Source: a virus
DNA: 64,000 bases
IMG/VR virus record: IMGVR_UViG_3300011432_000001
Span: 1-64,000 of that record
Direction: 5' to 3' (one strand)
This document shows, piece after piece, positions 835-15,623 of the stretch. A program made the translations under genes and the position numbers. Under the pieces are notes generated by a model. That model ran no database searches. It was not told where the DNA came from and saw only the letters and a program-made list of their open reading frames with translations. Each line of letters begins with the position of its first letter. Positions within the stretch are counted from its first letter, which is position 1.

Positions 835-1185
835 ATGGCATTAGGACTAAATACACTGCGCGCGATACAAAACGGAGTAGACGCGCAAGTACCATTCAAA
901 AATAGTACAAAAAGCATAATCGGGATAAAGTATGATAGCAAGTTTCCGCCCGATATGGGAAGGCTTCCCATGATATACAGAGATATTCTCACTGAGCAAT
1001 GCAAGCGAGGATATGTCCGTTACATCATTTTCTCATACAATACTCCGATTGCTTGGGCTTTGTTCGGTGGCAAGTGGGAGATTCCTGATGTACGCTACAG
1101 TAAGAGCACCACGCATCATCAGAACTCGGTCGGTACAGCGACTCAGAATTTCGATTTCTACAACAAGCTAGGAAATATGCAATAA
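835..1185 (+). CDS. hypothetical protein
   Basis: ORF with RBS agggagataaaATG. Confidence 0.55.
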   Translation: MALGLNTLRAIQNGVDAQVPFKNSTKSIIGIKYDSKFPPDMGRLPMIYRDILTEQCKRGYVRYIIFSYNTPIAWALFGGKWEIPDVRYSKSTTHHQNSVGTATQNFDFYNKLGNMQ

Positions 1186-1310
1186 TCAATCGTGCCGATT
1201 AACATTGATCGGCTGACGTCTTGCTGGCATGCGTACGGCATGAGTCGCAGCTTTACTTAGCGCGGCTGTAGTCGGGGGTCGGTCCGAATCCGATTTAGGA
1301 CGCAATCCTG

Positions 1311-1787
1311 TTGAGCCTCAAGCATTCGGGGCTGAGCATGGAGAATAACGGATCTAAATACATTGATGTTCAAGGAAATGAGAAATCAATGATAATCGAT
1401 AAAAGAATGAAAATGTTCCATGACACAGAGGATCAAAAGTTTACCGGATTGTGGACTTATGACACTGAGCACCCATTGGTGTACAAACTGTCATTGCCAA
1501 AGATTTTAAAGGAATCCCGTGAACTGACTGTGTTTTGGGGCATCGGCCGAAGTTTGGTGAGATCGGCTTTGGATGATCACAAGCTAGGCGGGGTAAATGA
1601 TATCCTGATCATGCCTAGCTTGGGTGGAGTAACGCTGATTTACCTCAGTAACGGGGTCGATGCGGCTATTATAGGAATGGAAACGAGCGAGCTAGCGGAA
1701 TTTCACCGCAGGGCACACAAGCTCATATCTGAGGATGAAGAAATGAATCTCACTATGGATAAACTGATGAGTGAGGTACAGAAATGA
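1311..1787 (+). CDS. hypothetical protein (track start is TTG; ATG at 1338 with upstream GGGG is the likelier start)
   Basis: 158-aa ORF; the next gene overlaps by ATGA. Confidence 0.5.
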   Translation: MSLKHSGLSMENNGSKYIDVQGNEKSMIIDKRMKMFHDTEDQKFTGLWTYDTEHPLVYKLSLPKILKESRELTVFWGIGRSLVRSALDDHKLGGVNDILIMPSLGGVTLIYLSNGVDAAIIGMETSELAEFHRRAHKLISEDEEMNLTMDKLMSEVQK

Positions 1788-2098
1788 ATGAATTCAAAAT
1801 TCCTATGGAATTCAACTTCTACGATATCATGATGCTTTCGCAAATGATTGCTCATGCACGTAGATACGGTGACAATCAGGTTTCTGATTGGGCAGGCGAA
1901 TTTCGTGACAGAATGAACGAAGCGGCCAACCCTGACAAGGGATCGGCAAAACGGACGCTCTTGGAATTGCAGCCGACCATTGAAGGCGAGGCTAAAGAGG
2001 TTCTCAAGGCGGTTGGGGAGCAAACGGCAGTGATGCCAGAGGTCAGGCCAGAAACACCAAAGCCGTCGGTGATTGGCAAGAAGCCTGCGGCTAAGTAA
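1784..2098 (+). CDS. hypothetical protein
   Basis: Start overlaps the upstream stop (ATGAATG coupling). Confidence 0.5.
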   Translation: MNEFKIPMEFNFYDIMMLSQMIAHARRYGDNQVSDWAGEFRDRMNEAANPDKGSAKRTLLELQPTIEGEAKEVLKAVGEQTAVMPEVRPETPKPSVIGKKPAAK

Positions 2099-2354
2099 TG
2101 GGTGGCATTAATGGATTCCGGTTGGCTATGATAGTGGGAATCGTCATGTCATTCGGTTTGGGTATCCCATTCTTGGTGCCCGCGTGGATCTATGGCGAGA
2201 TAGTCTATGCCAAGATAGAAAGCAAGAAGTGACGTAGAGCATATATGGTACATAAGTTCGGAAAGATCTTGAATTTATGTGCCGTATAAGTTTGGCGTTT
2301 AGCCGAACCCATGTTAGAGTAAACGGACAAGGTACAACTACAAAGGAGTGAGAA

Positions 2355-2990
2355 ATGGCAAACGGACTGCTCGATGACCTTATTGACGCTTCCAACACGG
2401 ACGAGAGTCCGGTCGAGGAGTCGACCGAGGTTAGCGACAATGGTGCCGAAGCAACCGTAGAAGAGACTCGCGAAACTGTGCAAGTTTCTTCGCTTGACGA
2501 ACTTCCCGATGGTTACGTCGATGTTCGTACGTTCGCGTATGAACTGTCTAAGGCCAACATTGCGAAGGCTGCGGCGGAAGGCCGAGACTTCGGAGTTGAC
2601 GACATGGTCGATACCCAGGCTGTTTATGCAGCTACCCGCAACAAGCGTTGGTCTTTGCCTTCGCTTGACGCTGTGGATTCCGAGGGCACAAAGCTCGGAG
2701 TGGTAATCCCACTGGCCGAGGGTTTGGCCGCTTGGGAGAACCGGCCGGAGCGCGGGACGGGTACCGGCGGAAGTGCGATGACTCCGGAGCGACGGGCGAC
2801 CCGTATCCTTCGTGCTGGCAAGGCCCTGGATCGTCAGGCCTACTGGGACGCGCGGGTCAAGCGCTACGGTGAGCTCTTGGAAGCTGTTGGGGCTACCTGG
2901 GATGACGCCAAGGCCGCATTCGAGGCGTGGGCGGAGTCAGAAGAGGGTAAAAGAGCAATCAAGGATGACAAAGACTCGGATGGCGAGTAA
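2355..2990 (+). CDS. hypothetical acidic protein in a GC-rich island
   Basis: Strong RBS aaaggagtgagaaATG; noticeably GC-richer codon usage than its neighbours; followed by a terminator. Confidence 0.6.
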   Translation: MANGLLDDLIDASNTDESPVEESTEVSDNGAEATVEETRETVQVSSLDELPDGYVDVRTFAYELSKANIAKAAAEGRDFGVDDMVDTQAVYAATRNKRWSLPSLDAVDSEGTKLGVVIPLAEGLAAWENRPERGTGTGGSAMTPERRATRILRAGKALDRQAYWDARVKRYGELLEAVGATWDDAKAAFEAWAESEEGKRAIKDDKDSDGE

Positions 2991-3005
2991 GTCATAGATT
3001 GGCAA

Positions 3006-3031
3006 GGGGCTTCGGCCCCTTACCTTTCTAG
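3006..3031 (+). terminator. Rho-independent terminator (AAGGGGC-TTCG-GCCCCTT then CTTTCT)
   Basis: 7-bp GC stem with a TTCG tetraloop immediately after the stop at 2990. Confidence 0.5.
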
Positions 3032-3366
3032 GATTTATTGGTTAGATCGCAATAACTCCAAAAGCTCAGCAACCCCTATAATATCGACTAAGTTACGGAG
3101 TCATGACCGTGGCCGAATGCGATAGGGAATTCATGACTCCTTATATTCCACATGTGGTATTTGCCTAATGGGAATGAAGGGGGTTGCTGCTTAATGGTTG
3201 ATTCTAGATAAACTGGTGTGGGACTGCACCTTGATTCCGGGCTAGCCACGGATAAAGGACCTAACACCAAATGATGCTGGCCGACGAGCTAGAGCTGTTG
3301 GGGGATTGGGGAATATTCTAGACCCTATAAGAACCGCGACGCATTTGAAGAGAAAAGGACGGGATT

Positions 3367-3396
3367 AGCTTCCTAGGAAGCTTTTCTCGTTTTCTG
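3367..3396 (+). terminator. 16-bp perfect palindrome AGCTTCCTAGGAAGCT followed by TTTCTCGTTTTCT
   Basis: Hairpin plus T-rich tail inside a 560-nt ORF-free spacer. Confidence 0.45.
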
Positions 3397-3567
3397 TGGG
3401 GATAAAATAGAGATCGCGAATCTTACAAAATCCCACAAGGGTAGTCAGGCTCAGTTTGTGTGCGAATAGACCTGACACCCGGGGATGACGGCACACCGTT
3501 CATTCCCACCAATGTCAGAATCCTGCCCAACTTTCAGAAACGTATCTAGATATAGTTAGGTATAGAG

Positions 3568-3771
3568 ATGTTCAAAGTAAGTGAAGAAGTGTACGGTATT
3601 AAGTTCATGTATTCAAGCAACGATAACAAAACTCATCTAATGGTTCTTCGAACCAAGAATATAGGTTATGAGTCCTATTGTCGTGCCGTCTCCATTCCGA
3701 AATGGACGCTTACAGGTAGCACAGAAGTTACCTGTCCCAAATGCAAAAAGGCGATGGTTGAAAGTGAATAA
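3568..3771 (+). CDS. small Cys-containing (CPKCKK) protein
   Basis: ORF; RBS-like taggtatagagATG. Confidence 0.45.
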   Translation: MFKVSEEVYGIKFMYSSNDNKTHLMVLRTKNIGYESYCRAVSIPKWTLTGSTEVTCPKCKKAMVESE

Positions 3772-3922
3772 AATTTTTGAACTCAGGTTGCGCGGTAGCA
3801 TGTACAAGGAAATAAGTGATGAACTTGGAATAGACATAGAAACAGTACGTGAAGTTATTGAGGTGGAAATTCAAAGATTGGAAAGAGAAAATGTATCTAG
3901 TGACAGTGAAACTGCCGAGTGA
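3668..3922 (+). CDS. small HTH DNA-binding protein (sigma-70 region-4/LuxR-like helix-turn-helix); real start probably a GTG near 3764
   Basis: Motif LRLRGSMYKEISDELGIDIETVREVIE is a typical region-4 HTH; the 5' part overlaps the previous ORF in another frame. Confidence 0.45.
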   Translation: MSPIVVPSPFRNGRLQVAQKLPVPNAKRRWLKVNKIFELRLRGSMYKEISDELGIDIETVREVIEVEIQRLERENVSSDSETAE

Positions 3923-4097
3923 TCTTAATCATGACCCACACAATAAAGTAACAGGTAAGTGTCCAGTACCGTTTAATTTCGAGTGTACTGATGTGACTGG
4001 TCAGCATCACACTTTTCTTTCCACAGTGAATTCTAAGCAAGATGTTATAGACAATTGGGGTAATGAATTCCACATCACTAGGATAGAGGAAGTATGA
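3849..4097 (+). CDS. hypothetical protein (likely start ATG at about 3891, after aaagagaaa)
   Basis: ORF. Confidence 0.4.
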   Translation: MKLLRWKFKDWKEKMYLVTVKLPSDLNHDPHNKVTGKCPVPFNFECTDVTGQHHTFLSTVNSKQDVIDNWGNEFHITRIEEV

Positions 4098-4291
4098 TGG
4101 TTAAACACATAGATGGCGTTATCTATGGTGACGTTGTTTATGACGAAAGAGGAGATAGATATTATTTCCTGTGTGAGTGGTGCGAAACTGGTATTCACGG
4201 AGGACCCAATAGTGAGAGCTTTGTTATCATCAAAGCAGACCAGCACGAACAAGAATGCACGGCCAAACCAAATAATAAAACGGACACGTAG
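4094..4291 (+). CDS. hypothetical small Cys/His protein
   Basis: RBS ggatagaggaagtATGATG; CEWCE..H motif. Confidence 0.5.
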   Translation: MMVKHIDGVIYGDVVYDERGDRYYFLCEWCETGIHGGPNSESFVIIKADQHEQECTAKPNNKTDT

Positions 4292-4345
4292 ATGTGACGG
4301 GCGAGGTCAAAAATACGCTGATAATAGGGCACAGCCTGATGGCTA

Positions 4346-4621
4346 GTGCCCTTTAGTCATGGAGATACAATGCCAACACTAAATAAGGGTAGTAGGACAG
4401 AATTTCCCAAGGGTGGACTGTACGCTGAGGGTAGGATGAAAGCTGGCCTCACTATTAGTAATGGTGGGGTAGCCGATGCCACTTTGGGAGTAGCATTTGA
4501 GAGGGCTGGCCATGAATTCCGTAGAGAATTCGGCCGCTGGCCGGACTGGGAAAAGATCTTATTTCGCGGATCTTTCGTTACGGGTGGCGCAGTGGTTGAA
4601 ATCTGTGAGCCACAGGATTAG
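4346..4621 (+). CDS. hypothetical protein
   Basis: ORF. Confidence 0.5.
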   Translation: MPFSHGDTMPTLNKGSRTEFPKGGLYAEGRMKAGLTISNGGVADATLGVAFERAGHEFRREFGRWPDWEKILFRGSFVTGGAVVEICEPQD

Positions 4622-4667
4622 ATCGCGAAAATCGAGGAATTCCCTAGGTGATACATAAACATCATTC

Positions 4668-4964
4668 ATGAATAAATTCATGGGTGGTGTTGGTCTATTA
4701 ATAGGGGAGTATAAAATGAAACTAGTCAGTGAACGTAAGCTAGCCGTACTGTGTGATGGTAATATCGATGACCACTCCACACTCAATGCCTGGTCAGAGC
4801 TTATGTCATCATTTGTTTCGCATTACTATAGACATGATGGTAAAACAGAAACCAAGGTCGAGATGATCATTGATGGAAACTCTCTTAACCCGGTATTACG
4901 TACCTATTCCAATCTGCTATCAACTCTACAGAAAGAGGAAGTCGATGGATCGGTTCAACCCTGA
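4668..4964 (+). CDS. hypothetical protein
   Basis: ORF; the 3' end overlaps the next ORF. Confidence 0.4.
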   Translation: MNKFMGGVGLLIGEYKMKLVSERKLAVLCDGNIDDHSTLNAWSELMSSFVSHYYRHDGKTETKVEMIIDGNSLNPVLRTYSNLLSTLQKEEVDGSVQP

Positions 4965-5331
4965 GGATAACGGTACTGATTTCAGAACTCATTACTATGG
5001 GGATTCCTGTCCAGGCGGACACGGACAATTTGTGGTCAATAATGATCCTGATTTTGAAGGGTTAATCTACCAGGATGATGGAGCTAACAGACTGATCGCA
5101 GAAGTTAATGCGGCCCGACGAGACATGATGGATTTCTACCTGGTACAGGATGACAACCAGAGTGGACTATTCATTTCTGCAATCATATTCGAGGAGTCAG
5201 CAGAAGACGCAATTTTCTTTGTATTGAAAGAATACAGAGAGATTCTTGGTCCCAGGCCTAGAATGTTTGCACAGAGGCTGCATCTCACTCGCCAATTAGG
5301 TAGCCATTATCTAGTGAAGAAGAAAGGATAA
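4870..5331 (+). CDS. hypothetical protein (probable true start ATG at about 4945 after agaaagaggaag)
   Basis: Strong internal RBS; the track start would overlap the upstream gene by 95 nt. Confidence 0.5.
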   Translation: MMETLLTRYYVPIPICYQLYRKRKSMDRFNPEDNGTDFRTHYYGDSCPGGHGQFVVNNDPDFEGLIYQDDGANRLIAEVNAARRDMMDFYLVQDDNQSGLFISAIIFEESAEDAIFFVLKEYREILGPRPRMFAQRLHLTRQLGSHYLVKKKG

Positions 5332-5613
5332 TTGATGAACATATTCAGTAAAATACTTAATAGCTTCTTCGGTAAAGTACCAGAAGAGACAAGGCCAAGA
5401 TATGGCAGAGTAATTAGGTATGATGGCTCTTATGAACCAGTCGTTTTCCACCCCACAGTGGAAGACCCAAAAATTTTCAGGGCTAAGCTGGTTGGAACAA
5501 ATGAGGATTTAAAAGCCGCATCTGGAGACATGGTGAAGATTGACGTTCTAGGTCCTGGGCAGGCGGTAACCTGGATAATGCGTGGAGATAGTCCAAGTGA
5601 TTATGATGGATGA
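5332..5613 (+). CDS. hypothetical protein
   Basis: RBS gaagaaaggataattgATG. Confidence 0.5.
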   Translation: MMNIFSKILNSFFGKVPEETRPRYGRVIRYDGSYEPVVFHPTVEDPKIFRAKLVGTNEDLKAASGDMVKIDVLGPGQAVTWIMRGDSPSDYDG

Positions 5614-6438: not shown

Positions 6439-7464
6439 ATGCCAATATTCTCCGGAGTCATAAATGTACGAAAATCCAAAGTTATAAGGATTGAAAGTTG
6501 TGAGCGGAGTTTCTGTATGGGAACTCCAATCGGAGCGTTCAATTCGGAACGTCCATATAGAATAGAGAAAATAGTGCTTTGGCTGATCTTTTTGATCGTC
6601 CTTTCGATAGTGGTCATCATTCTAGGATTCGCTGTCGCGCAAAGGAATGAGAATGAGACATATCCAGTCCAAGGATTGGTGACGGTTCTCATTCTCATGC
6701 CTGTTTTGTGGTTGGCATTCTCGTTTACTGCGGTAGACGCCAACTCTCAGGAAGTAAGAACTTCATTCGGAAAACCGACTGGAGTCATTGGCAACGGTCC
6801 ACATCTTGTTGCTCCATGGAGCACAGGAACGCCATTCTCCAGCGCAAGACAGTTCATCGTGTTTAAGGACAAACCAGGTGAGAATGAGCAACCACGAATT
6901 GCCTCCCGTCTTGCTGGCCAGGCTACTGCTGATGTCGAAGGTGTTGTTAGCTATACTCAGCCTTCATCTAAGGTGATCGAGCTGTTCAGAAGCTGGAAGA
7001 CTGAGGATCGCATTCGCAATCTTTTAGTTTTCCAAGAAGCTAAAGGTGCTTTGCAAGAAGCACTAGGTACGTTCGACCCTCTGGCCGAAGATAAGCAGAA
7101 GGAAGATGTTTACTCTTTCTACGGCGCAGAGGCAACCAATAAATTGAACGCAAGACTTGGTGGTCTGCTCGAAGGAGTTAAGATCACCATTGGCTTCATC
7201 GATTACGATACTGGTACCGATTCCAAGTTGGCAGAGCTTCAGGCTGCCCGCGCGGAAACTAAGGTTGCCACGCAGAAACTTCTGACTGCGGAGCAACTTG
7301 CATTGGCGAACGAGCGTATCTCCAGGTCGCTTTCTAGTGATCCTGTTGTGGCGTTCTATCAGTGTACAGCGATGTGGACTGAGGTTGTTGCCAAGATGAA
7401 TCCTGTACCTGCCAACTTCAGTATCTCTGGTATCTGTGCTAATACCATCGGCGCAGTGAGGTAA
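6439..7464 (+). CDS. membrane-anchored SPFH/band-7 (prohibitin/HflK-like) domain protein
   Basis: N-terminal TM helix LWLIFLIVLSIVVIILGFAVA followed by an SPFH-like domain with an Ala/Gln/Glu-rich coiled-coil tail (AELQAARAETKVATQKLLTAEQLALANERI). Confidence 0.5.
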   Translation: MPIFSGVINVRKSKVIRIESCERSFCMGTPIGAFNSERPYRIEKIVLWLIFLIVLSIVVIILGFAVAQRNENETYPVQGLVTVLILMPVLWLAFSFTAVDANSQEVRTSFGKPTGVIGNGPHLVAPWSTGTPFSSARQFIVFKDKPGENEQPRIASRLAGQATADVEGVVSYTQPSSKVIELFRSWKTEDRIRNLLVFQEAKGALQEALGTFDPLAEDKQKEDVYSFYGAEATNKLNARLGGLLEGVKITIGFIDYDTGTDSKLAELQAARAETKVATQKLLTAEQLALANERISRSLSSDPVVAFYQCTAMWTEVVAKMNPVPANFSISGICANTIGAVR

Positions 7465-10413: not shown

Positions 10414-10600
10414 GTAGGAATCCTGCTAGTGCTAATGCCTCCATCCCCCCGGATCCTAAGCACAAGTGGTCACCACAGGGCAGGTATGTCTGTAGGGGTT
10501 AGGCAGACAATAAATGTCGTCCCATGCTAGTCTTGGGAGTAGCATGGTACGATGGGATAACCAGTACGGTATCGATGTAGAGGTATTGGTTATCCACAAC

Positions 10601-10671
10601 GCGGGGTAGCTTAACAGCAGAGCACTAGGCTCATAACCTGGAAGATGTGGGTGCAAATCCCATTCCCGCCA
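10601..10671 (+). tRNA. tRNA-Met (CAT) or tRNA-Ile (lysidine)
   Basis: Good D-arm (GCTT/AACAGCA/GAGC), perfect anticodon arm CTAGG-CTCATAA-CCTGG, T-arm GTGGG-TGCAAAT-CCCAT; the acceptor stem has one register irregularity. Confidence 0.5.
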
Positions 10672-10699
10672 CGAAAGAAATGCCGTGTCACTGCGGACT

Positions 10700-12150
10700 G
10701 GTCAACGTTCTAGACTGAATAAGAATCGGTTATCTTATTGGAAGAGAACTTTTCCGATTCTAAATCACACGTTTGGAACCCAAAACGTGATGGCGTATGG
10801 TATCTAGGGAGATCCTAGAACGAAACTCGCGTAAGAGGGTGCATGAAACAAAGCCATCACATCTAAAGCTTGCTGCTGAGCCCGCCGCGAGAAAAGTGTT
10901 AAACTGAATGAGTTCGTTTATCTTGATGGTTCAACTCCACCTATCTCCTTGGGAGATATCGCCTAATTGGTTAGGGCGTAGACGAACACAACAAACATGT
11001 TTGACACTCACAGGAGGTGAAGAAATGGGCGAGGGCTGGATTGTTGTCTGGTAAATAGACGTAGTACTGGACTGATAGTAATTGGTTATCTGGAACAAAG
11101 GGTCGCAGGTTCGAGTCCTGCTCAGCTGAATTCCGGCTGGTAGCTTAGTTGGCAGAGCATTTGTATGCCGAAAGGCTCTCCGATTACATCCCATGTTCGG
11201 TACTTTAATTTGGGTGAGACGGTCTCTTTCAAGTGTGACTATATGGTTTCGAATAGCTCCGTGGTGCGTGCCAACTATCCGAAATGAGTGAGTAGAAACT
11301 GATGTCATACTTGCCGTCTCACCCATGCTAAGCAAGATTGTGGACTGAATAGTATTGGTTATCGGCATTGTATATTCCAATACTGACTCACATGTTCGCA
11401 AGCAAAAGCCTGTCGGGGGTCGATAGGGAAAGTGAAAAAGTATCAGACTGAATGTTGATTGGTTATCAACTGCAAATTGAAAGCCGAGGTAAGTCGGCTA
11501 AGTTCCGATCGACTATCACATGTTTGATACCAAGTGGCTATGGTGCAATGGCAGCACAACAGACTTCCACTCTGTTAATCTGGGTTCGAGTCCCAGTGGC
11601 CGCTCTTTGGGTGGTTGTCTCAATAAGTCCCGGCGTCTAGTAGTGTGGTTTAGCTGGGTTGCGAGACAATCAATTCAGGCTAGCGAAAGCTACCGTACTA
11701 CACTACAACGGAAAGCGGCTGGACCTGTAAGGTGAGTGGAATACTAGTTAGAAACTCACCTCCCATTAAATTTAATATTGTGGACTGATGTGAATTGGTG
11801 ATCGACCGTCAACGTCATATTGTCTAGAGGTAAGTGCCTTATTCCTACTAGCAGATCCGATTTACACTCACATGTTCGCAATAACAAAGTGTCGGGCGAG
11901 GAACGGTCAGGTAACCGTCACCTGACTCGCCTGGCTCCAACTTAACAATTGTAGACTGAATTGAAATCGGTTATCTTGCCAGAAAGCTGCGGAACTAAGA
12001 GCCCGCAACCATTCCCTATAAAGGAGTGTCCCGATTTCTTCAACATGTTTGCAATCTAAAATATCACCCTTTTGGGATGGGTTGTTGGACTGATATTCAT
12101 TGGTTATCATTCCCTCTTGACGAATAAAATATCCGATGAAGTTTCCATGT
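10700..12150 (+). repeat. array of 8 dispersed copies of a conserved structured element: RGACTGAW-N8-YGGTTATC (A), then a covarying 8-9 bp hairpin, then CACATGTTYGMAA (B)
   Basis: A-boxes at 10711, 10901, 11069, 11341, 11444, 11781, 11952 and 12085. The 3' stem arms covary: AGAATCGG/CCGATTCT, AGTATTGG/CCAATACT, GAAATCGG/CCGATTTC, GTGAATTGG/CCGATTTAC, GTTGATTGG/CCGATCGAC, TTCATTGG/CCGATGAA. There are no credible ORFs across the island. Confidence 0.6.
11534..11604 (+). tRNA. tRNA-Gly (TCC)
   Basis: Full cloverleaf: acceptor GTGGCTA/TGGCCGC (2 GU pairs), D GTGC-AATGGCA-GCAC, anticodon arm ACAGA-CTTCCAC-TCTGT, T arm CTGGG-TTCGAGT-CCCAG. Confidence 0.7.
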
Positions 12151-12171
12151 TCGACACACTAAAAGGGGTCA

Positions 12172-12375
12172 ATGATGCAAGAAGTAACAATTCTTTACGG
12201 CGTTGACGGTGTTGTGAAGAAGAAAAAGATTAAAGCTACAAAGATTACTGCTCAAATGGACGTTGACGGCACAAATGTGAACGCATCCGCAGATGGAACA
12301 GATGAAGATGGACCAATAATCTGGGTCCTCTTCAAAGATGCATATATTCTAGAACTACGTCCTGTAAAGGATTAA
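12172..12375 (+). CDS. hypothetical protein (Lys-rich)
   Basis: RBS aaaaggggtcaatgATG immediately downstream of repeat unit 8. Confidence 0.5.
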   Translation: MMQEVTILYGVDGVVKKKKIKATKITAQMDVDGTNVNASADGTDEDGPIIWVLFKDAYILELRPVKD

Positions 12376-12609
12376 GCTCCAGCCTGCGTAACCTCACAAA
12401 TTGTAAGGTGACTCTTCGACAGTCTAACTTGCATACGTGATTGGTGGCTACAGCCCGTGAGGTAGTTACGGCAATATCGGGTGCTCAACTCCAAGGGTGC
12501 GACAGCCTAAGGATATGGTGGAAGTTGTGGAGGATTCCTCTGTCGCGCTAAATACGGTACAATAAAAGCTTACGGCAGCAGAGTTTGATCGCCATTAGAG
12601 AGGCATATC

Positions 12610-13740
12610 ATGAGACTCGACCGTAGGCATTGGACAGCCCTCGTAGCAGGATTGGCCACAATCGTAATTGGCTTTTCAACAAGTACAACGTCGGTAGGTA
12701 ATTCTGTCGAGACGATAGACGACCAAGCCGTGATGTATAGGGCTTGCACTAGTCGTCTCGGCGAAACACAAAAGCCAATGACCCCAGAGGTTTTGGCATT
12801 TTTGCGTAATTGTGAAGAGGCTTTTGCGCCAAGTTCACCACCAAGTGAAAGTCCATCTGCATCTCCCACAAGTAGTCCTCCCACAAGTAGTCCTTCTGCA
12901 AGCCCTTCTGTAAGTCCTTCTGTAAGTCCTAGTGTGTCACCAACACCAAGCCCAACCCTGCCAACAGCGGAGTGCCCTCCGCTACCAGCATTTCCTGATG
13001 AGAATTGTACAGGTTACAGGCATACTGGCGTAACATTGACATCGTGTCCAAGGCAATTGAATGTTGCAAACGCTACATATGACTCCTGTCGTTTCGATGG
13101 TAGTATTACCATTGCTGCGGATAACATCAAAATCACACGTTCGCTAGTGAACGGCGGAGTTGTCAACAGCGTAAACGGAAACAACCAAATGCGTGGATTG
13201 CAGTTGACTGATGTGGAAATTCTCGGCGCAACAGGGACAGATCAGCTAGCTGCGATTGGAACTGAAAATTATACTTGTATTAGGTGTCACATTCACAAAA
13301 CGTATAGAGGTTTTGCACTCGGGAATAACGTTAGGATAATAGATTCATATTCACATGATTTCAGACGTCAACCCGAAGCACACCAGACAGCAGCTAGTAC
13401 TCACGGTGGATCCAATGTTTTCATTGATCACTCAAGACTACGTTGTGAGAGTGACAAATACGCCTGTTCAAACGGCATATCTTTCTACGCAGCAAACTCT
13501 AATATCAACAATGTGACAATTCAGAACAGTCACATTTCGACCGACGCCGGATATGGAATCGGATTCTTTTATCTGAACCCTGGTAATGGAAAACCTTACA
13601 ACGTATTCAACACTAAGATTCTGAACAACGTGTTCGGCTCTTGGGAATATGGTATGCGCGCCAATTGGATGGGTACTCGGGACGGTAACGTTTGGTCTGG
13701 TAATACACAAGAACCATTCGATCCTGTTTGTAGATGTTAA
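12610..13740 (+). CDS. secreted protein with a Ser/Pro/Thr-rich linker and a C-terminal right-handed beta-helix-like (pectate-lyase-like) domain
   Basis: Signal peptide MRLDRRHWTALVAGLATIVIG; linker SPSASPTSSPPTSSPSASPSVSPSVSPSVSPTPSPT; repeated NVxIxNSHI / NVRIIDSYSHDF beta-helix-like turns. Confidence 0.55.
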   Translation: MRLDRRHWTALVAGLATIVIGFSTSTTSVGNSVETIDDQAVMYRACTSRLGETQKPMTPEVLAFLRNCEEAFAPSSPPSESPSASPTSSPPTSSPSASPSVSPSVSPSVSPTPSPTLPTAECPPLPAFPDENCTGYRHTGVTLTSCPRQLNVANATYDSCRFDGSITIAADNIKITRSLVNGGVVNSVNGNNQMRGLQLTDVEILGATGTDQLAAIGTENYTCIRCHIHKTYRGFALGNNVRIIDSYSHDFRRQPEAHQTAASTHGGSNVFIDHSRLRCESDKYACSNGISFYAANSNINNVTIQNSHISTDAGYGIGFFYLNPGNGKPYNVFNTKILNNVFGSWEYGMRANWMGTRDGNVWSGNTQEPFDPVCRC

Positions 13741-13809
13741 TTTCCCCTCTCATCATATGAGTAGCCTGGGGATTGTAAGGCTGACAGGAACGCCTATTCC
13801 TGTCAGCAT

Positions 13810-13884
13810 CTAGGTATAGCTCAGCTTGGTTAGAGCACTGCGTTTGGGACGCAGAAGCCGCAAGTTCGAATCTTGCTACCTAGA
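13810..13884 (+). tRNA. tRNA-Pro (TGG)
   Basis: Perfect cloverleaf: acceptor CTAGGTA/TACCTAG (C1-G72 as in bacterial tRNA-Pro), D GCTC-AGCTTGGTTA-GAGC, anticodon arm CTGCG-TTTGGGA-CGCAG, T arm GCAAG-TTCGAAT-CTTGC. Confidence 0.8.
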
Positions 13885-13988
13885 CGATACACAAAGACTC
13901 CCCTTTGAGCGGGCGGAGAATGGGGCAACACTTGACGCCAATTGAGTGTTGTCCCAACCATGTTTCCTACGGAGACTAAAGGAGCAAA

Positions 13989-15623
13989 ATGTCAGACTAT
14001 CTTACTCGTCATGTAACTCGTGACATTCCTCAGACTGAGAAGGAAAACCCGTTGCAGATAGCAAACTCTGCTGGTGGTTTCTCTTTCGAAGTTGATAAGT
14101 GGAAGCGACTTGAGCGATTCCTTATTCTTGGTTCCGAAGGTGGTACTTACTACATCGGTGAAAAGGACCTGACTAAGGAAAATCTCGACAACCTACGCAA
14201 CCTTACGCAGGAAGATGGCAAAGAGGTTGTAGCCCTGGCTGCGAACGTCTCAACTTTCGGTCGTTCTTACAAGAACAATGCTGCTATCTTCGTTTTGGCT
14301 TTTGTCATGACACATGGTAGCGATGAAGTTAAGTCGTTTGCTCGTGGCATGGTGGATCAGATTGTGCGTACTTCTACACATCTGTTCACGTTCGAGAAGT
14401 TCTTGAAGGCACTAGCTCCTGGTACGGGTTTGGGAACCTCCCGAAACCGCGCCATCGCTGCGTGGTATGAGGGGAAGACGACTGAGCAGCTTGCTTACCA
14501 GGCTGTGAAATACCGGCAGCGCGAGGGATGGACGCATCGCGATTCAATGCGTCAGTCGCGTCCAAAGGGTATTGACCCTGCCCTAGGTAATTGGATTCTA
14601 GGTAAAAACGATGGGCAGGCTTTTGATGTTCCACAGATCGTTCAAGCATTCGAGATCGCTCAAAAGGTAGGTAACGTCAAGGAACTTTTGAACACACTTG
14701 AGGTTTACACAAACCTTCCTTGGGAAGCCCTTCCAACTCAATTTCTCAAGAACGCCGAGGTATGGAAGAAGCTTTTCTACAATGGGCAGCTCAATGGTCA
14801 GGCGTTGGTGCGAAACATCACTCGCTTGGCTCGGCTTGGAGCGTTCGAAGATCTTGTGTTCGCACACGACTACGCTGCCAAGCTCACCGACACTGAGATG
14901 ATCCTCAAAACCAAGCTGCATCCTATCAACTACTTGAATGCTGTTACGGTTCACGTAGAAGGACAGGTTCAACGGCGTGGTGACGGTGGAGGGTATGGTT
15001 ATTATGGTCACGGTGGACGCAATAGGGATTGGACTACTTCTTCAATCATCGTTGATGCATTGAATGCTGGATTCCATTTGGCTTTTGTCAACGCTGTGCC
15101 ATCCAACAAGCGCACCTTGCTAGCCTTGGACGTCAGTGGTTCAATGAGTTCGGCAATGGCACTTGGTCTGGACCTAACGGCTGCTCAAGTAACAGGCGCG
15201 ATGGCCACTACCATTGCCAAGGTCGAGCCGTACCATCGGATTATGGGATTCGCAAGCGAGTTTCGTGATTTGGGTATTTCAGCGAACATGTCCTTGTCAG
15301 AGGTAACCAAGCGAGTTCAAGATATGAACTTTGGAACTACGGATTGTGCTTTGCCAATGACTTGGGCAATGCAAAACAAGTACGAGTACGACACGTTCAT
15401 TGTCATGACTGACAATGAAACTTATCGAGGTTCTGTGCACCCGCACATGGCTTTGCAGAAGTACCGTCAAGCAACGGGGATCAATGCGAAGTTGATTGTC
15501 GTTGGCGTAGCAGCTAACGATTTCACTATTGCAGATCCCAATGACGTTGGCATGTTGGATGTGGTCGGTGCGGACAGTAACTTGCCAAAGCTGATAACGG
15601 AATTCAGTAAGGGAAATCTTTAA
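13989..15623 (+). CDS. rsr: Ro60 orthologue (Rsr): TROVE domain plus C-terminal von Willebrand A domain
   Basis: 544 aa; N-terminal TROVE-like region; C-terminal vWA with MIDAS LALDVSGSMSS; RBS aaaggagcaaaATG. Confidence 0.75.
   Translation: MSDYLTRHVTRDIPQTEKENPLQIANSAGGFSFEVDKWKRLERFLILGSEGGTYYIGEKDLTKENLDNLRNLTQEDGKEVVALAANVSTFGRSYKNNAAIFVLAFVMTHGSDEVKSFARGMVDQIVRTSTHLFTFEKFLKALAPGTGLGTSRNRAIAAWYEGKTTEQLAYQAVKYRQREGWTHRDSMRQSRPKGIDPALGNWILGKNDGQAFDVPQIVQAFEIAQKVGNVKELLNTLEVYTNLPWEALPTQFLKNAEVWKKLFYNGQLNGQALVRNITRLARLGAFEDLVFAHDYAAKLTDTEMILKTKLHPINYLNAVTVHVEGQVQRRGDGGGYGYYGHGGRNRDWTTSSIIVDALNAGFHLAFVNAVPSNKRTLLALDVSGSMSSAMALGLDLTAAQVTGAMATTIAKVEPYHRIMGFASEFRDLGISANMSLSEVTKRVQDMNFGTTDCALPMTWAMQNKYEYDTFIVMTDNETYRGSVHPHMALQKYRQATGINAKLIVVGVAANDFTIADPNDVGMLDVVGADSNLPKLITEFSKGNL

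Follow-up and report, generated by a model that had tools for sequence, protein, structure and literature searches.

Of the two halves of the Ro60 ribonucleoprotein (RNP), the Y RNAs are the less well understood, and to our knowledge only a handful of bacterial ones have been studied, typically two per genome. We describe here eight same-strand repeat units at positions 10705-12158 (+ strand) of a 64-kb stretch of viral DNA (positions 1 to 64,000 of IMG/VR record IMGVR_UViG_3300011432_000001; this whole stretch is called the window below). Judged from sequence and predicted folds, the eight units are very probably a tandem array of paralogous phage Y RNA-like genes that is encoded together with a Ro60 gene. 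The window belongs to a tailed phage, with genes for a terminase, a portal, a major head protein, a tape measure protein, a DNA polymerase, and helicases.

Described bacterial Y RNAs lie within 4 kb of the Ro60 gene, on the same strand, and carry a 5' motif, GNCGAA (Chen 2014, PMC4201824), which resembles the vertebrate GGUCCGA contacted by Ro60 (PMC4201824). In vertebrates, the site for Ro60 is a 7-bp helix in which a single C is bulged out and the opposite strand has a 3-nt bulge, and the loops of sbRNAs and vertebrate Y RNAs carry a conserved UUAUC at their 5' end (PMC4726728, PMC4450293); the sbRNA literature describes UUAUC as needed for the DNA-replication activity of these RNAs. Co-transcription and processing have been reported for YrlA/YrlB of M. 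smegmatis, and the Deinococcus Y RNA functions by tethering Rsr to PNPase. Y RNAs normally depend on Ro60 for their stability. In Thermus phage phiLo, Yrl1 and Yrl2 have a CGAA-type motif, and experiments demonstrated that the phage Ro60 binds them and that they assemble with host PNPase (PMC12135203). A 2015 review considered bacterial Y RNAs 'not homologous' with the vertebrate ones.

A relaxed form of the conserved A-box, ACTGAW-N5-10-GKTKATC, matched the 64-kb window eight times, always on the + strand between 10714 and 12108 (starts at 10714, 10903, 11071, 11344, 11447, 11784, 11955, and 12089), against a chance expectation of 0.17 on average, and none of 100 dinucleotide-preserving shuffles reached eight. 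The eight units and their places, as recognized in an initial annotation made from the sequence alone, were therefore confirmed, but the A-box pattern given there, with an N8 spacer, matches no unit as written. The true internal spacing is 6-7 nt, and two units carry variants (AAACTGA...CGTTTATC in unit 2 and GGTGATC in unit 6). The B-box CAYGTTYG, at first counted about seven times, is present once in each of the eight units (10768, 10996, 11192, 11391, 11519, 11871, 12044, and 12146); the B-box 13-mer alone was not above chance across the window (11 matches versus 8.1 expected, 6 of them inside the array). The units share a core of only ∼25 nt, and both their lengths (64-142 nt) and the spacers between them are irregular. 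The array thus does not consist of the near-identical, regularly spaced direct repeats expected of CRISPR, retron msr-msd, or ToxI elements, and the Rfam scan gave no match to these. The earlier description of the island as free of open reading frames (ORFs) holds only loosely, as mechanical ORFs of 30-156 aa overlap the region, none of them supported.

Minimum free energy (MFE) folds of the units with their flanks paired the 5' half of the A-box with the B-box in all eight cases. The A-box and B-box together make up a single basal helix, one strand each, and each unit is a single rod, not the succession of three linear pieces (A-box, hairpin, B-box) that it was first taken for. The lower stem of this rod has 8-10 bp; its outer part differs among the copies yet remains complementary (e.g., GUUCUAGAC/GUUUGGAAC, AGUACUGGAC/GUUCGGUACU, and GUAUCAGAC/GUUUGAUAC), and it ends in RGAC/GUUY. 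Above it comes a junction with one unpaired U (GGAC-U-GA), a conserved G.U pair, and an A opposite an A, the last being an A-U pair in many relatives, along with a short bulge of a few unpaired bases in the 3' strand (...UCAC or ...CAC-AU). The upper stem covaries, has 8-9 bp, and is always closed by GG/CC. UUAUC follows directly in seven of the eight units (UGAUC in unit 6) and stands at the 5' edge of the apical module, a variable part with which the whole unit attains its final length; the distance from A-box to B-box ranges from 47 to 121 nt. The MFE folds also offered a UGA/UCA pairing with a 3-nt CAU bulge, which holds in the window's clade and was rejected for the family, in which ∼50% of cells fit it. 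Because the vertebrate-like G.U next to the bulge was found in 53 of 53 units of the alignment described below (GU in 48, GC in 5), i.e., 100% versus ∼50% for UGA/UCA, we describe the junction in the vertebrate-like way.

Both helices showed compensatory variation. Among the eight window copies, 145 of 160 cells were standard pairs and six positions displayed 2-5 pair types. In the upper stem, the three lowest pairs had 3-5 standard pair types and 63 of 64 cells paired, which confirms the initial proposal that the hairpin partners covary; three pairs of the lower stem showed 2-3 pair types, and positions 7-14/58-65 paired in every copy. When 53 units from 20 loci were aligned, 89% of cells were paired, 17 of the 20 pairs had changed on both sides, and the covariation score was 0.80 compared to 0.12-0.19 with the partners slid. 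Bacterial matches to our covariance model of the module, R1 (the E-values of models built in this analysis are rough), gave 90% paired cells and a covariation of 0.65 versus ∼0.1 when slid. The GGAC-U-GAA and GGGU-C-GAA variants align base for base, and the last pair of the lower stem, C-G in the first, is U-A in the second, the B-box changing with it from GUUC to AUCC. Selection on a folded structure, as had been suggested, is thus upheld, with covariation in the window, 53-unit, and bacterial sets all supporting a folded RNA.

The Ro60 ORF lies 1.8-3.3 kb downstream of the units on the same strand, and its product shares 51-53% identity with the protein annotated as 'Ro-like RNA binding protein' in Streptomyces BE-cluster phages. 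Among cultured phages these are the nearest relatives, and the host is probably an actinobacterium. A search of public collections with the Ro60 protein yielded 2 viral, 38 metagenomic, and 80 bacterial loci. In nearly all of the metagenomic loci, GGG(U/C)CGAAG-N7-GGUUAUC is present in 2-7 copies, all on the strand of Ro60; the closest relatives, whose Ro60 is 62-99% identical, carry the RGACUGAA variant of the window. A covariance-model search, which the initial annotation had proposed as a check, did find homologous units among 38 other Ro60 loci, in cultured actinophages, and in bacteria. In the window, R1 matched only the units listed in the table at E <= 10 (both strands, 128 kb), and on 40 unrelated viral loci with partial motif matches (∼350 kb) it gave no match. 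On the 38 other Ro60 loci it produced 43 matches, all on the Ro60 strand and 41 of them within 4.8 kb, including 13 outside the seed. The 80 bacterial Ro60 loci, none of which had entered the model, gave 20 matches in 17 loci, all 20 on the Ro60 strand and adjacent to the gene; in these 17 of 80 loci the module (bulged helix plus GGUUAUC) stands directly upstream of the chromosomal Ro60. The bacteria concerned are Polyangium, Nocardia, Methylobacterium/Methylorubrum, Anaerolineae, Solirubrobacterales, Gaiellaceae, and Propionibacteriaceae.

Two further analyses were less circular than the seed alignment. A leave-out model, R2, was built from 16 register-consistent rows, i.e., GGGYCG-type units of other clades with none from the window's clade, and its filter-free scan of the window placed units 4 (23.5 bits, E 0.004), 1, and 8 as the top three matches. 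When loci were anchored by a regular expression for the Ro motif alone, TTATC occurred in 40 of 253 matches on the Ro60 strand, 39 of them at +17 to +19 and one at +16, whereas on the opposite strand it occurred in 4 of 181 at scattered offsets. As the offset clusters on the Ro60 strand even under this motif-only anchor, the position of UUAUC is not an artifact of the anchor.

Comparison of the region with 50,697 phage records by blastn returned tRNAs only, and a scan of IMG/VR with GGACTGAW-N5-9-GGTTATC gave more than 120 single chance matches and no arrays. A tighter IMG/VR pattern that included CCGAT matched 44 loci, and the three with several matches were the contigs of loci L125 and L126 and a new relative, L272 (IMGVR_UViG_3300050510_000109), which on its minus strand (∼1000-5000) holds at least five window-type A-boxes and eight ACUUGUU-type B-boxes with seven tRNAs interleaved over ∼4 kb. 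Arrays are typical of this uncultured phage clade (at least 5 units in L124, 5 in L125, 7 in L126, and 7 in L130). Cultured relatives have one or two R1 matches each, and motif and blastn matches suggest up to ∼4 in Streptomyces phage Sham. R1 matches adjoin the annotated Ro-like genes of the cultured actinophages Bxz1, BoomerJR, SM23, and Mareelih; the module units carry no annotation in the six cultured-actinophage records examined. Module sites in such records were noted at 4597-4675 and 4872-4947 of Bxz1 (L163), at 5415 and 5530-5605 of BoomerJR (L165), at 4922-4992 of L166, and at 7390-7461 and 7953-8029 of L167. In Sham (L162, ON645339.1), unannotated Y RNA-like units were observed upstream of the Ro-like gene at 4061-4158, 4205, and 5136-5202. 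A 62-nt 'tRNA-Ser(cga)' annotated there at 5141-5202 begins 5 nt after a GGGTCGGATG...GGTTATC unit, and what it represents is probably not a tRNA but a Y RNA's tRNA-like module.

The apical modules differ in all eight units of the window: that of unit 3 appears tRNA-like, that of unit 2 has its elements in YrlA order, the loop of unit 8 is rich in pyrimidines, those of units 1 and 4 are of minimal form, and units 5-7 bear other hairpins. In unit 1, the lower stem GUUCUAGAC/GUUUGGAAC is followed by the U bulge, the upper stem AAGAAUCGG/CCGAUUCU(U), and UUAUC, and the short apical loop holds AUUGGAA, a motif common to the first units of L125 and L126. Unit 4 reads GGACUGAAUAGUAUUGGUUAUC, 13 nt following UUAUC, and then CCAAUACU-GACUCAC-AU-GUUCGCAA. 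The module of unit 2, by folding only, presents a T-arm-like element (GGUUCAACUCC), a plain hairpin, and a D-arm-like element (loop AAUUGGUUA), which is the order in YrlA, and the unit is 71% identical to positions 278-389 of L124. Unit 3 contains the T-arm-like GCAGG-TTCGAGT-CCTGC pointed out initially, here as part of its match to Rfam YrlA, and has orthologues in L124, L125, L130, L132, and Sham. It was missed by R1, with filters on or off, because the model cannot bridge its 110-nt apical insert; running R1 without filters was abandoned, as units with long inserts scored worse. Since units 2 and 3 have orthologues in related phages (70-74% identity) and the loop motif of unit 1 is shared, the apical modules look conserved and not random. 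The apical modules of unit 2 and of the first unit of L130 (at 1943; L123, minus strand, 3170-3220) both start with the T-arm-like GAUGGUUCAAYUCCACC, which suggests that the two may be orthologous 'second tRNA-like' Y RNAs; the Ro60 proteins of these phages are 54% identical.

Coordinates of the eight units, the tRNA genes, and the Ro60 gene in the window
Feature	Coordinates	Strand	Evidence and remarks
tRNA-Met	10600..10672	+	ARAGORN; Rfam tRNA 54.9 bits; upstream neighbor in the island
Unit 1	10705..10781	+	R1 47.1 bits, E 1e-10
Unit 2	10894..11009	+	R1 45.5 bits; degenerate A-box AAACUGAA, GUUUAUC
Unit 3	11063..11204	+	Rfam YrlA RF02553 match; lower stem AGUACUGGAC/GUUCGGUACU; tRNA-like (YrlA-type) apical module
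Unit 4	11335..11404	+	R1 49.1 bits, E 3e-11; minimal form, 64 nt stem to stem
Unit 5	11438..11532	+	R1 45.8 bits; apical hairpin GCCGAGGUAAGUCGGC; stem ends 3 nt before tRNA-Gly
tRNA-Gly	11534..11605	+	ARAGORN; Rfam tRNA 62.9 bits; between units 5 and 6
Unit 6	11776..11883	+	R1 33.5 bits, E 8e-7; UGAUC; apical module ∼60 nt
Unit 7	11946..12057	+	R1 45.2 bits; apical module ∼60 nt
Unit 8	12080..12158	+	R1 37.4 bits; pyrimidine-rich apical loop (CAUUCCCUCUUG...); third-best R2 match
tRNA-Pro	13810..13885	+	ARAGORN; Rfam tRNA 68.2 bits; just upstream of Ro60
Ro60 (Rsr)	13989..15623	+	Pfam vWA_Ro60 5.5e-62, TROVE 1.5e-30; PHROG 850 RNA-binding protein 3.8e-79

The element was initially thought to match nothing known; it has the architecture of a Y RNA, and unit 3 resembles YrlA. 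An Rfam scan that covered ribozymes, riboswitches, and other families returned only tRNA and YrlA at E <= 10, the latter (RF02553) at 11079-11189 in unit 3 (42.1 bits, E 5e-7, model positions 1-114). No other unit matched YrlA, and units 1 and 4-8 have no tRNA-like domain. As in Y RNAs generally, the units lie near Ro60 on its strand, within ∼4 kb, and the strand agreed in 43 of 43 and 20 of 20 matches elsewhere. Their ends are paired with a bulged Ro motif, GGAC-U-GA(A), a variant that agrees with vertebrate GGUC-C-GA in length and register, and they share with metazoan Y RNAs and sbRNAs the UUAUC at the 5' end of the loop and one bulged pyrimidine with a bulge on the opposite strand. The 5' end of human Y4, GGUCCGAUGGUAGUGGGUUAUC, and GGACUGAAUAGUAUUGGUUAUC of unit 4 have the same 22-nt register, GGNCYGA...UUAUC (Y4 sequence from PMC5493846). 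Relatives at L137 match the sbRNA family RF01656 end to end (30.9 bits, E 1e-4, below the gathering score of 38) and Deinococcus_Y_RNA RF01053 at E 0.013-0.047, below the family cutoff.

Compared to YrlA/YrlB of Salmonella, M. smegmatis, and mycobacteriophages (PMC4201824), the units likewise lie within 4 kb of Ro60 on its strand, with several Y RNAs per locus (those of YrlA/YrlB are processed from one precursor), and comprise one apparently tRNA-like RNA (unit 3, arguably also unit 2), one hairpin with a pyrimidine loop (unit 8), and a 5' motif related to GNCGAA; R1 also matches upstream of the Ro-like gene of mycobacteriophage Bxz1. The window differs in having eight copies rather than ∼2, six of them without a tRNA-like domain, and GGAC-U-GAA in place of GNCGAA, with U instead of C at the bulge. 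It keeps both strands of the Ro helix, whereas the 5' strand alone can be made out in Salmonella and M. smegmatis (PMC4201824), and it conserves UUAUC, which is absent from the published description and from the Rfam YrlA consensus. The units resemble phiLo Yrl1/Yrl2 in being hairpins just upstream of a phage Ro60 with a stem-bulge-stem layout, but number eight instead of two; this comparison is by description: the phiLo RNAs were recognized by a CGAA in a bulge, and the passages of that report considered here (PMC12135203) mention neither UUAUC nor a tRNA-like module. Yrn1/Yrn2 of D. radiodurans also keep both strands of the bulged Ro-binding helix, and the RF01053 consensus, GGgCCgaAG-N7-CGGUUaC, has the register of the window and a UUAUC-like box; the window units nevertheless miss RF01053 and have different apical domains, and Deinococcus is a bacterium with two confirmed Y RNAs. 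With metazoan Y RNAs and sbRNAs the units share the lower helix, the bulged pyrimidine, the G.U, the 3' bulge, an ∼8-bp upper stem, and UUAUC, as well as membership in multigene families (humans have 4 members, and C. elegans has 18 sbRNAs). They differ from these in lacking RNA polymerase III signals and a 3' oligo-U/La site, in a bulged U instead of C, and in an A that faces A. The metazoan UG-CA of the upper stem (GUG/CAC) is not evident in the window (AAGAAUCGG, AGUAUUGG, and UUCAUUGG), which has a GG/CC clamp at the top only. The units are not strict members of Rfam YrlA, and by their predicted function and their context they are Y RNAs. The kind of element, phage Y RNA-like RNAs beside Ro60, is known, and the members are new and unannotated; what stands out is the diversified array of eight copies and how widespread the metazoan-type core, with UUAUC at the same register, is next to the Ro60 genes of prokaryotes and phages. 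A full-text search of the searchable literature for UUAUC together with Ro60 returned eukaryotic papers only, and prior notice is possible.

Several results weigh against assigning the array to the Y RNAs. The YrlA score of unit 3 (42.1) lies below the gathering score of 69, so the threshold of that family is not reached, and none of the eight units in the window matched Rfam Y_RNA (RF00019), sbRNA (RF01656), or the Deinococcus Y RNA at E <= 10. The motif GGAC-U-GAA and the A.A mismatch depart from the published bacterial GNCGAA. R2 recognizes the window units weakly, with a best E of 0.004 and five units not significant. The seeds of the 53-unit set were picked for pairing and for the GGTTATC anchor, which makes the covariation in that set partly circular, a circularity that the motif-only and bacterial tests offset only in part. 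Finally, at positions 184-304 of L131, a contig that is 99% identical to window positions 11757-14000, the lower stem of unit 7 has one G-to-A difference, which leaves an A.C mismatch that no second change compensates.

We weighed these points together with three other explanations of the array. Among the roles that the initial annotation listed, a family of small RNAs and a set of Ro60 binding sites are jointly supported, whereas RNase processing signals are not the best reading. The rods would then be hairpins at which RNase III or another endonuclease cuts a precursor of tRNAs, small RNAs, and mRNA, with the conserved boxes as nuclease determinants and no function as free RNAs. The placement of units directly before tRNA-Gly and the ORF at 12172 and between other structured segments is in keeping with this idea, as are interrupted duplexes of ∼20 bp with internal loops, compatible with T7-type geometry, and the failure to find internal promoters or terminators, by which processing is needed somewhere. 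The RNase III hairpins of the T7 early transcript are likewise repeated, partly conserved bulged hairpins between cistrons, but they have no Ro60 link, no UUAUC, no GGNCYGA core, and no elaborate apical modules. We consider such processing sites improbable, because the module accompanies Ro60 genes in phages as well as in bacteria belonging to several phyla, and in every case on the strand of Ro60. It often stands there in one or two copies upstream of rsr with nothing to separate, and these genomes share the Ro60 gene and no common nuclease. Moreover, the module is absent from the other 60 kb of the phage, its conserved nucleotides are those contacted by Ro60 in Y RNAs (GGUCCGA/GNCGAA), and three units have elaborate conserved apical modules (apparently tRNA-like in 2 and 3) that a cleavage site does not need.

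Two explanations at the level of DNA fared no better. Short conserved boxes repeated before tRNA-Gly, an ORF, and a mini-ORF, with some B-boxes loosely resembling TTGACA, might be taken for phage promoters or regulatory cassettes in which proteins bind the boxes on DNA and the hairpin is incidental or a terminator (the T4-type promoter-stem-loop). The initial annotation had named -35/-10 spacing of the two boxes as the sign of a promoter family, but the spacing of 47-121 nt rules out that geometry, tRNA-Gly starts 3 nt after unit 5 and leaves no room, and the array holds no sigma-70-like site on the + strand. The compensatory changes in two helices point to an RNA fold and not to duplex DNA, and elsewhere the module is tied to Ro60 rather than to gene starts, so we regard promoters as very unlikely. 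That the units are a mobile or recombination-prone repeat, similar to miniature inverted-repeat transposable elements or associated with homing, that spread in the tRNA island without an RNA function is scarcely credible. There are indeed multiple copies in one non-coding island, and HNH endonuclease genes, the ORF before the first unit of L123 among them, occur in the equivalent tRNA islands of related phages. What the copies have in common, however, is the functional core alone, and their other parts differ, with compensatory substitutions; apart from the stem itself, no terminal inverted repeats or target duplications are present, related phages carry orthologues of units 2 and 3 (70-74% identity), a single copy stands beside rsr in bacterial chromosomes, and R1 found no further, near-identical copies in the window.

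Under the preferred reading, an array of phage Y RNA-like genes, the following course of events may be envisaged. On its + strand, the array yielded neither a sigma-70-type promoter nor an intrinsic terminator (promoter counts were not above those of shuffled sequences), and co-transcription as one precursor followed by processing is therefore most likely. The island would be transcribed together with its three tRNAs and then cut by tRNA-processing and other nucleases; the RNase P site of tRNA-Gly lies 3 nt beyond the end of unit 5. The phage Ro60 is predicted to bind the bulged helix of each of the eight RNAs and would protect them from exonucleases. The eight apical modules may serve as alternative adaptors that tether Ro60 to partners, host PNPase for example, or that gate its cavity. 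The characterized bacterial partner of this sort is the exoribonuclease PNPase, and the putative adaptor role is drawn by analogy with D. radiodurans, Salmonella, and Thermus phage phiLo. Transcription, processing, and adaptor function of the units are, like Ro60 binding, deduced here from nucleotide patterns.

Other features of the island were noted as well. The tRNA-Met gene is probably co-transcribed with the array. Just upstream of it, at 10460-10599, lie three hairpins (z -5.3). The last of these, GGGAUAACCAGUAC/GUAUUGGUUAUCC, had been viewed as a degenerate ninth copy (10556-10593); it is a plain 13-bp hairpin that holds GGUUAUCC and has no Ro motif, A-box, or B-box, and R1 did not detect it. 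Between units 3 and 4, positions 11207-11334 form a near-perfect ∼120-nt hairpin (GGGUGAGACGG...CCGUCUCACCC; MFE -49.6 kcal/mol, z -5.3) that has no Rfam match and no homologue in related loci and could be another noncoding RNA or a processing site. A 170-nt segment of several hairpins follows tRNA-Gly (11606-11775, z -2.9), and a 62-nt GC-rich hairpin follows unit 6 (11884-11945, z -3.1). As first noted, a B-box borders tRNA-Gly, the lower stem of unit 5 stopping 3 nt before 11534, and a 9-codon mini-ORF (MGEGWIVVW, 11013-11055) with a Shine-Dalgarno sequence (AGGAGGTG) near 11024 is present. This mini-ORF is not conserved in L124, where the orthologues of units 2 and 3 are ∼10 nt apart. A B-box was also reported directly upstream of the ORF at 12172, which is approximately right, since unit 8 ends 13 nt before the ATG. 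The non-coding segment 12443-12551, upstream of the next ORF, is 75% identical to positions 1262-1371 of L124 (the phage Ro60s are 66% identical), and its fold is not better than those of shuffled sequences (z +0.55). That ORF, at 12610-13740 between the array and Ro60, encodes 376 aa with a hydrophobic helix at the N terminus and a linker rich in Pro and Ser. Searches of Pfam, PHROG, and PDB gave no match; it has weak similarity (29% over 202 aa, E 0.002) to an ORF that occupies the corresponding region of L001. We considered its product as an RNP partner and set this aside, as it looks membrane-anchored and no link to the RNAs was found.

In practical terms, such genes are unannotated in the six cultured-actinophage records, and at least one has apparently been mis-called as a truncated tRNA. 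Eight paralogues that combine one Ro60-binding core with eight apical modules would amount to a natural library on apical-module function, for which the candidate roles are the choice of a partner such as host PNPase, mimicry of tRNA in the course of infection, and gating of the Ro60 cavity. Human Y RNAs, nematode sbRNAs, and the Y RNA-like genes of phages and bacteria have one register for UUAUC and the two strands of the bulged helix, and this shared register bears on the question of a common origin of prokaryotic and animal Y RNAs. We tentatively put forward, as a possibility that falls short of even chances, that the common core of phage, bacterial, nematode, and vertebrate Y RNAs is one ancient module, made up of the lower helix, a bulged pyrimidine, the G.U pair, an 8-bp upper stem, and UUAUC, whose 22-nt register is fixed. 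In that case the Y RNAs of prokaryotes and animals would be homologous or exchanged, contrary to the 2015 review, and UUAUC would primarily be a determinant of the Ro60 RNP and not specific to replication. In this phage clade the gene would then have multiplied into arrays of 5-9 adaptors that differ in their apical 'address' modules.

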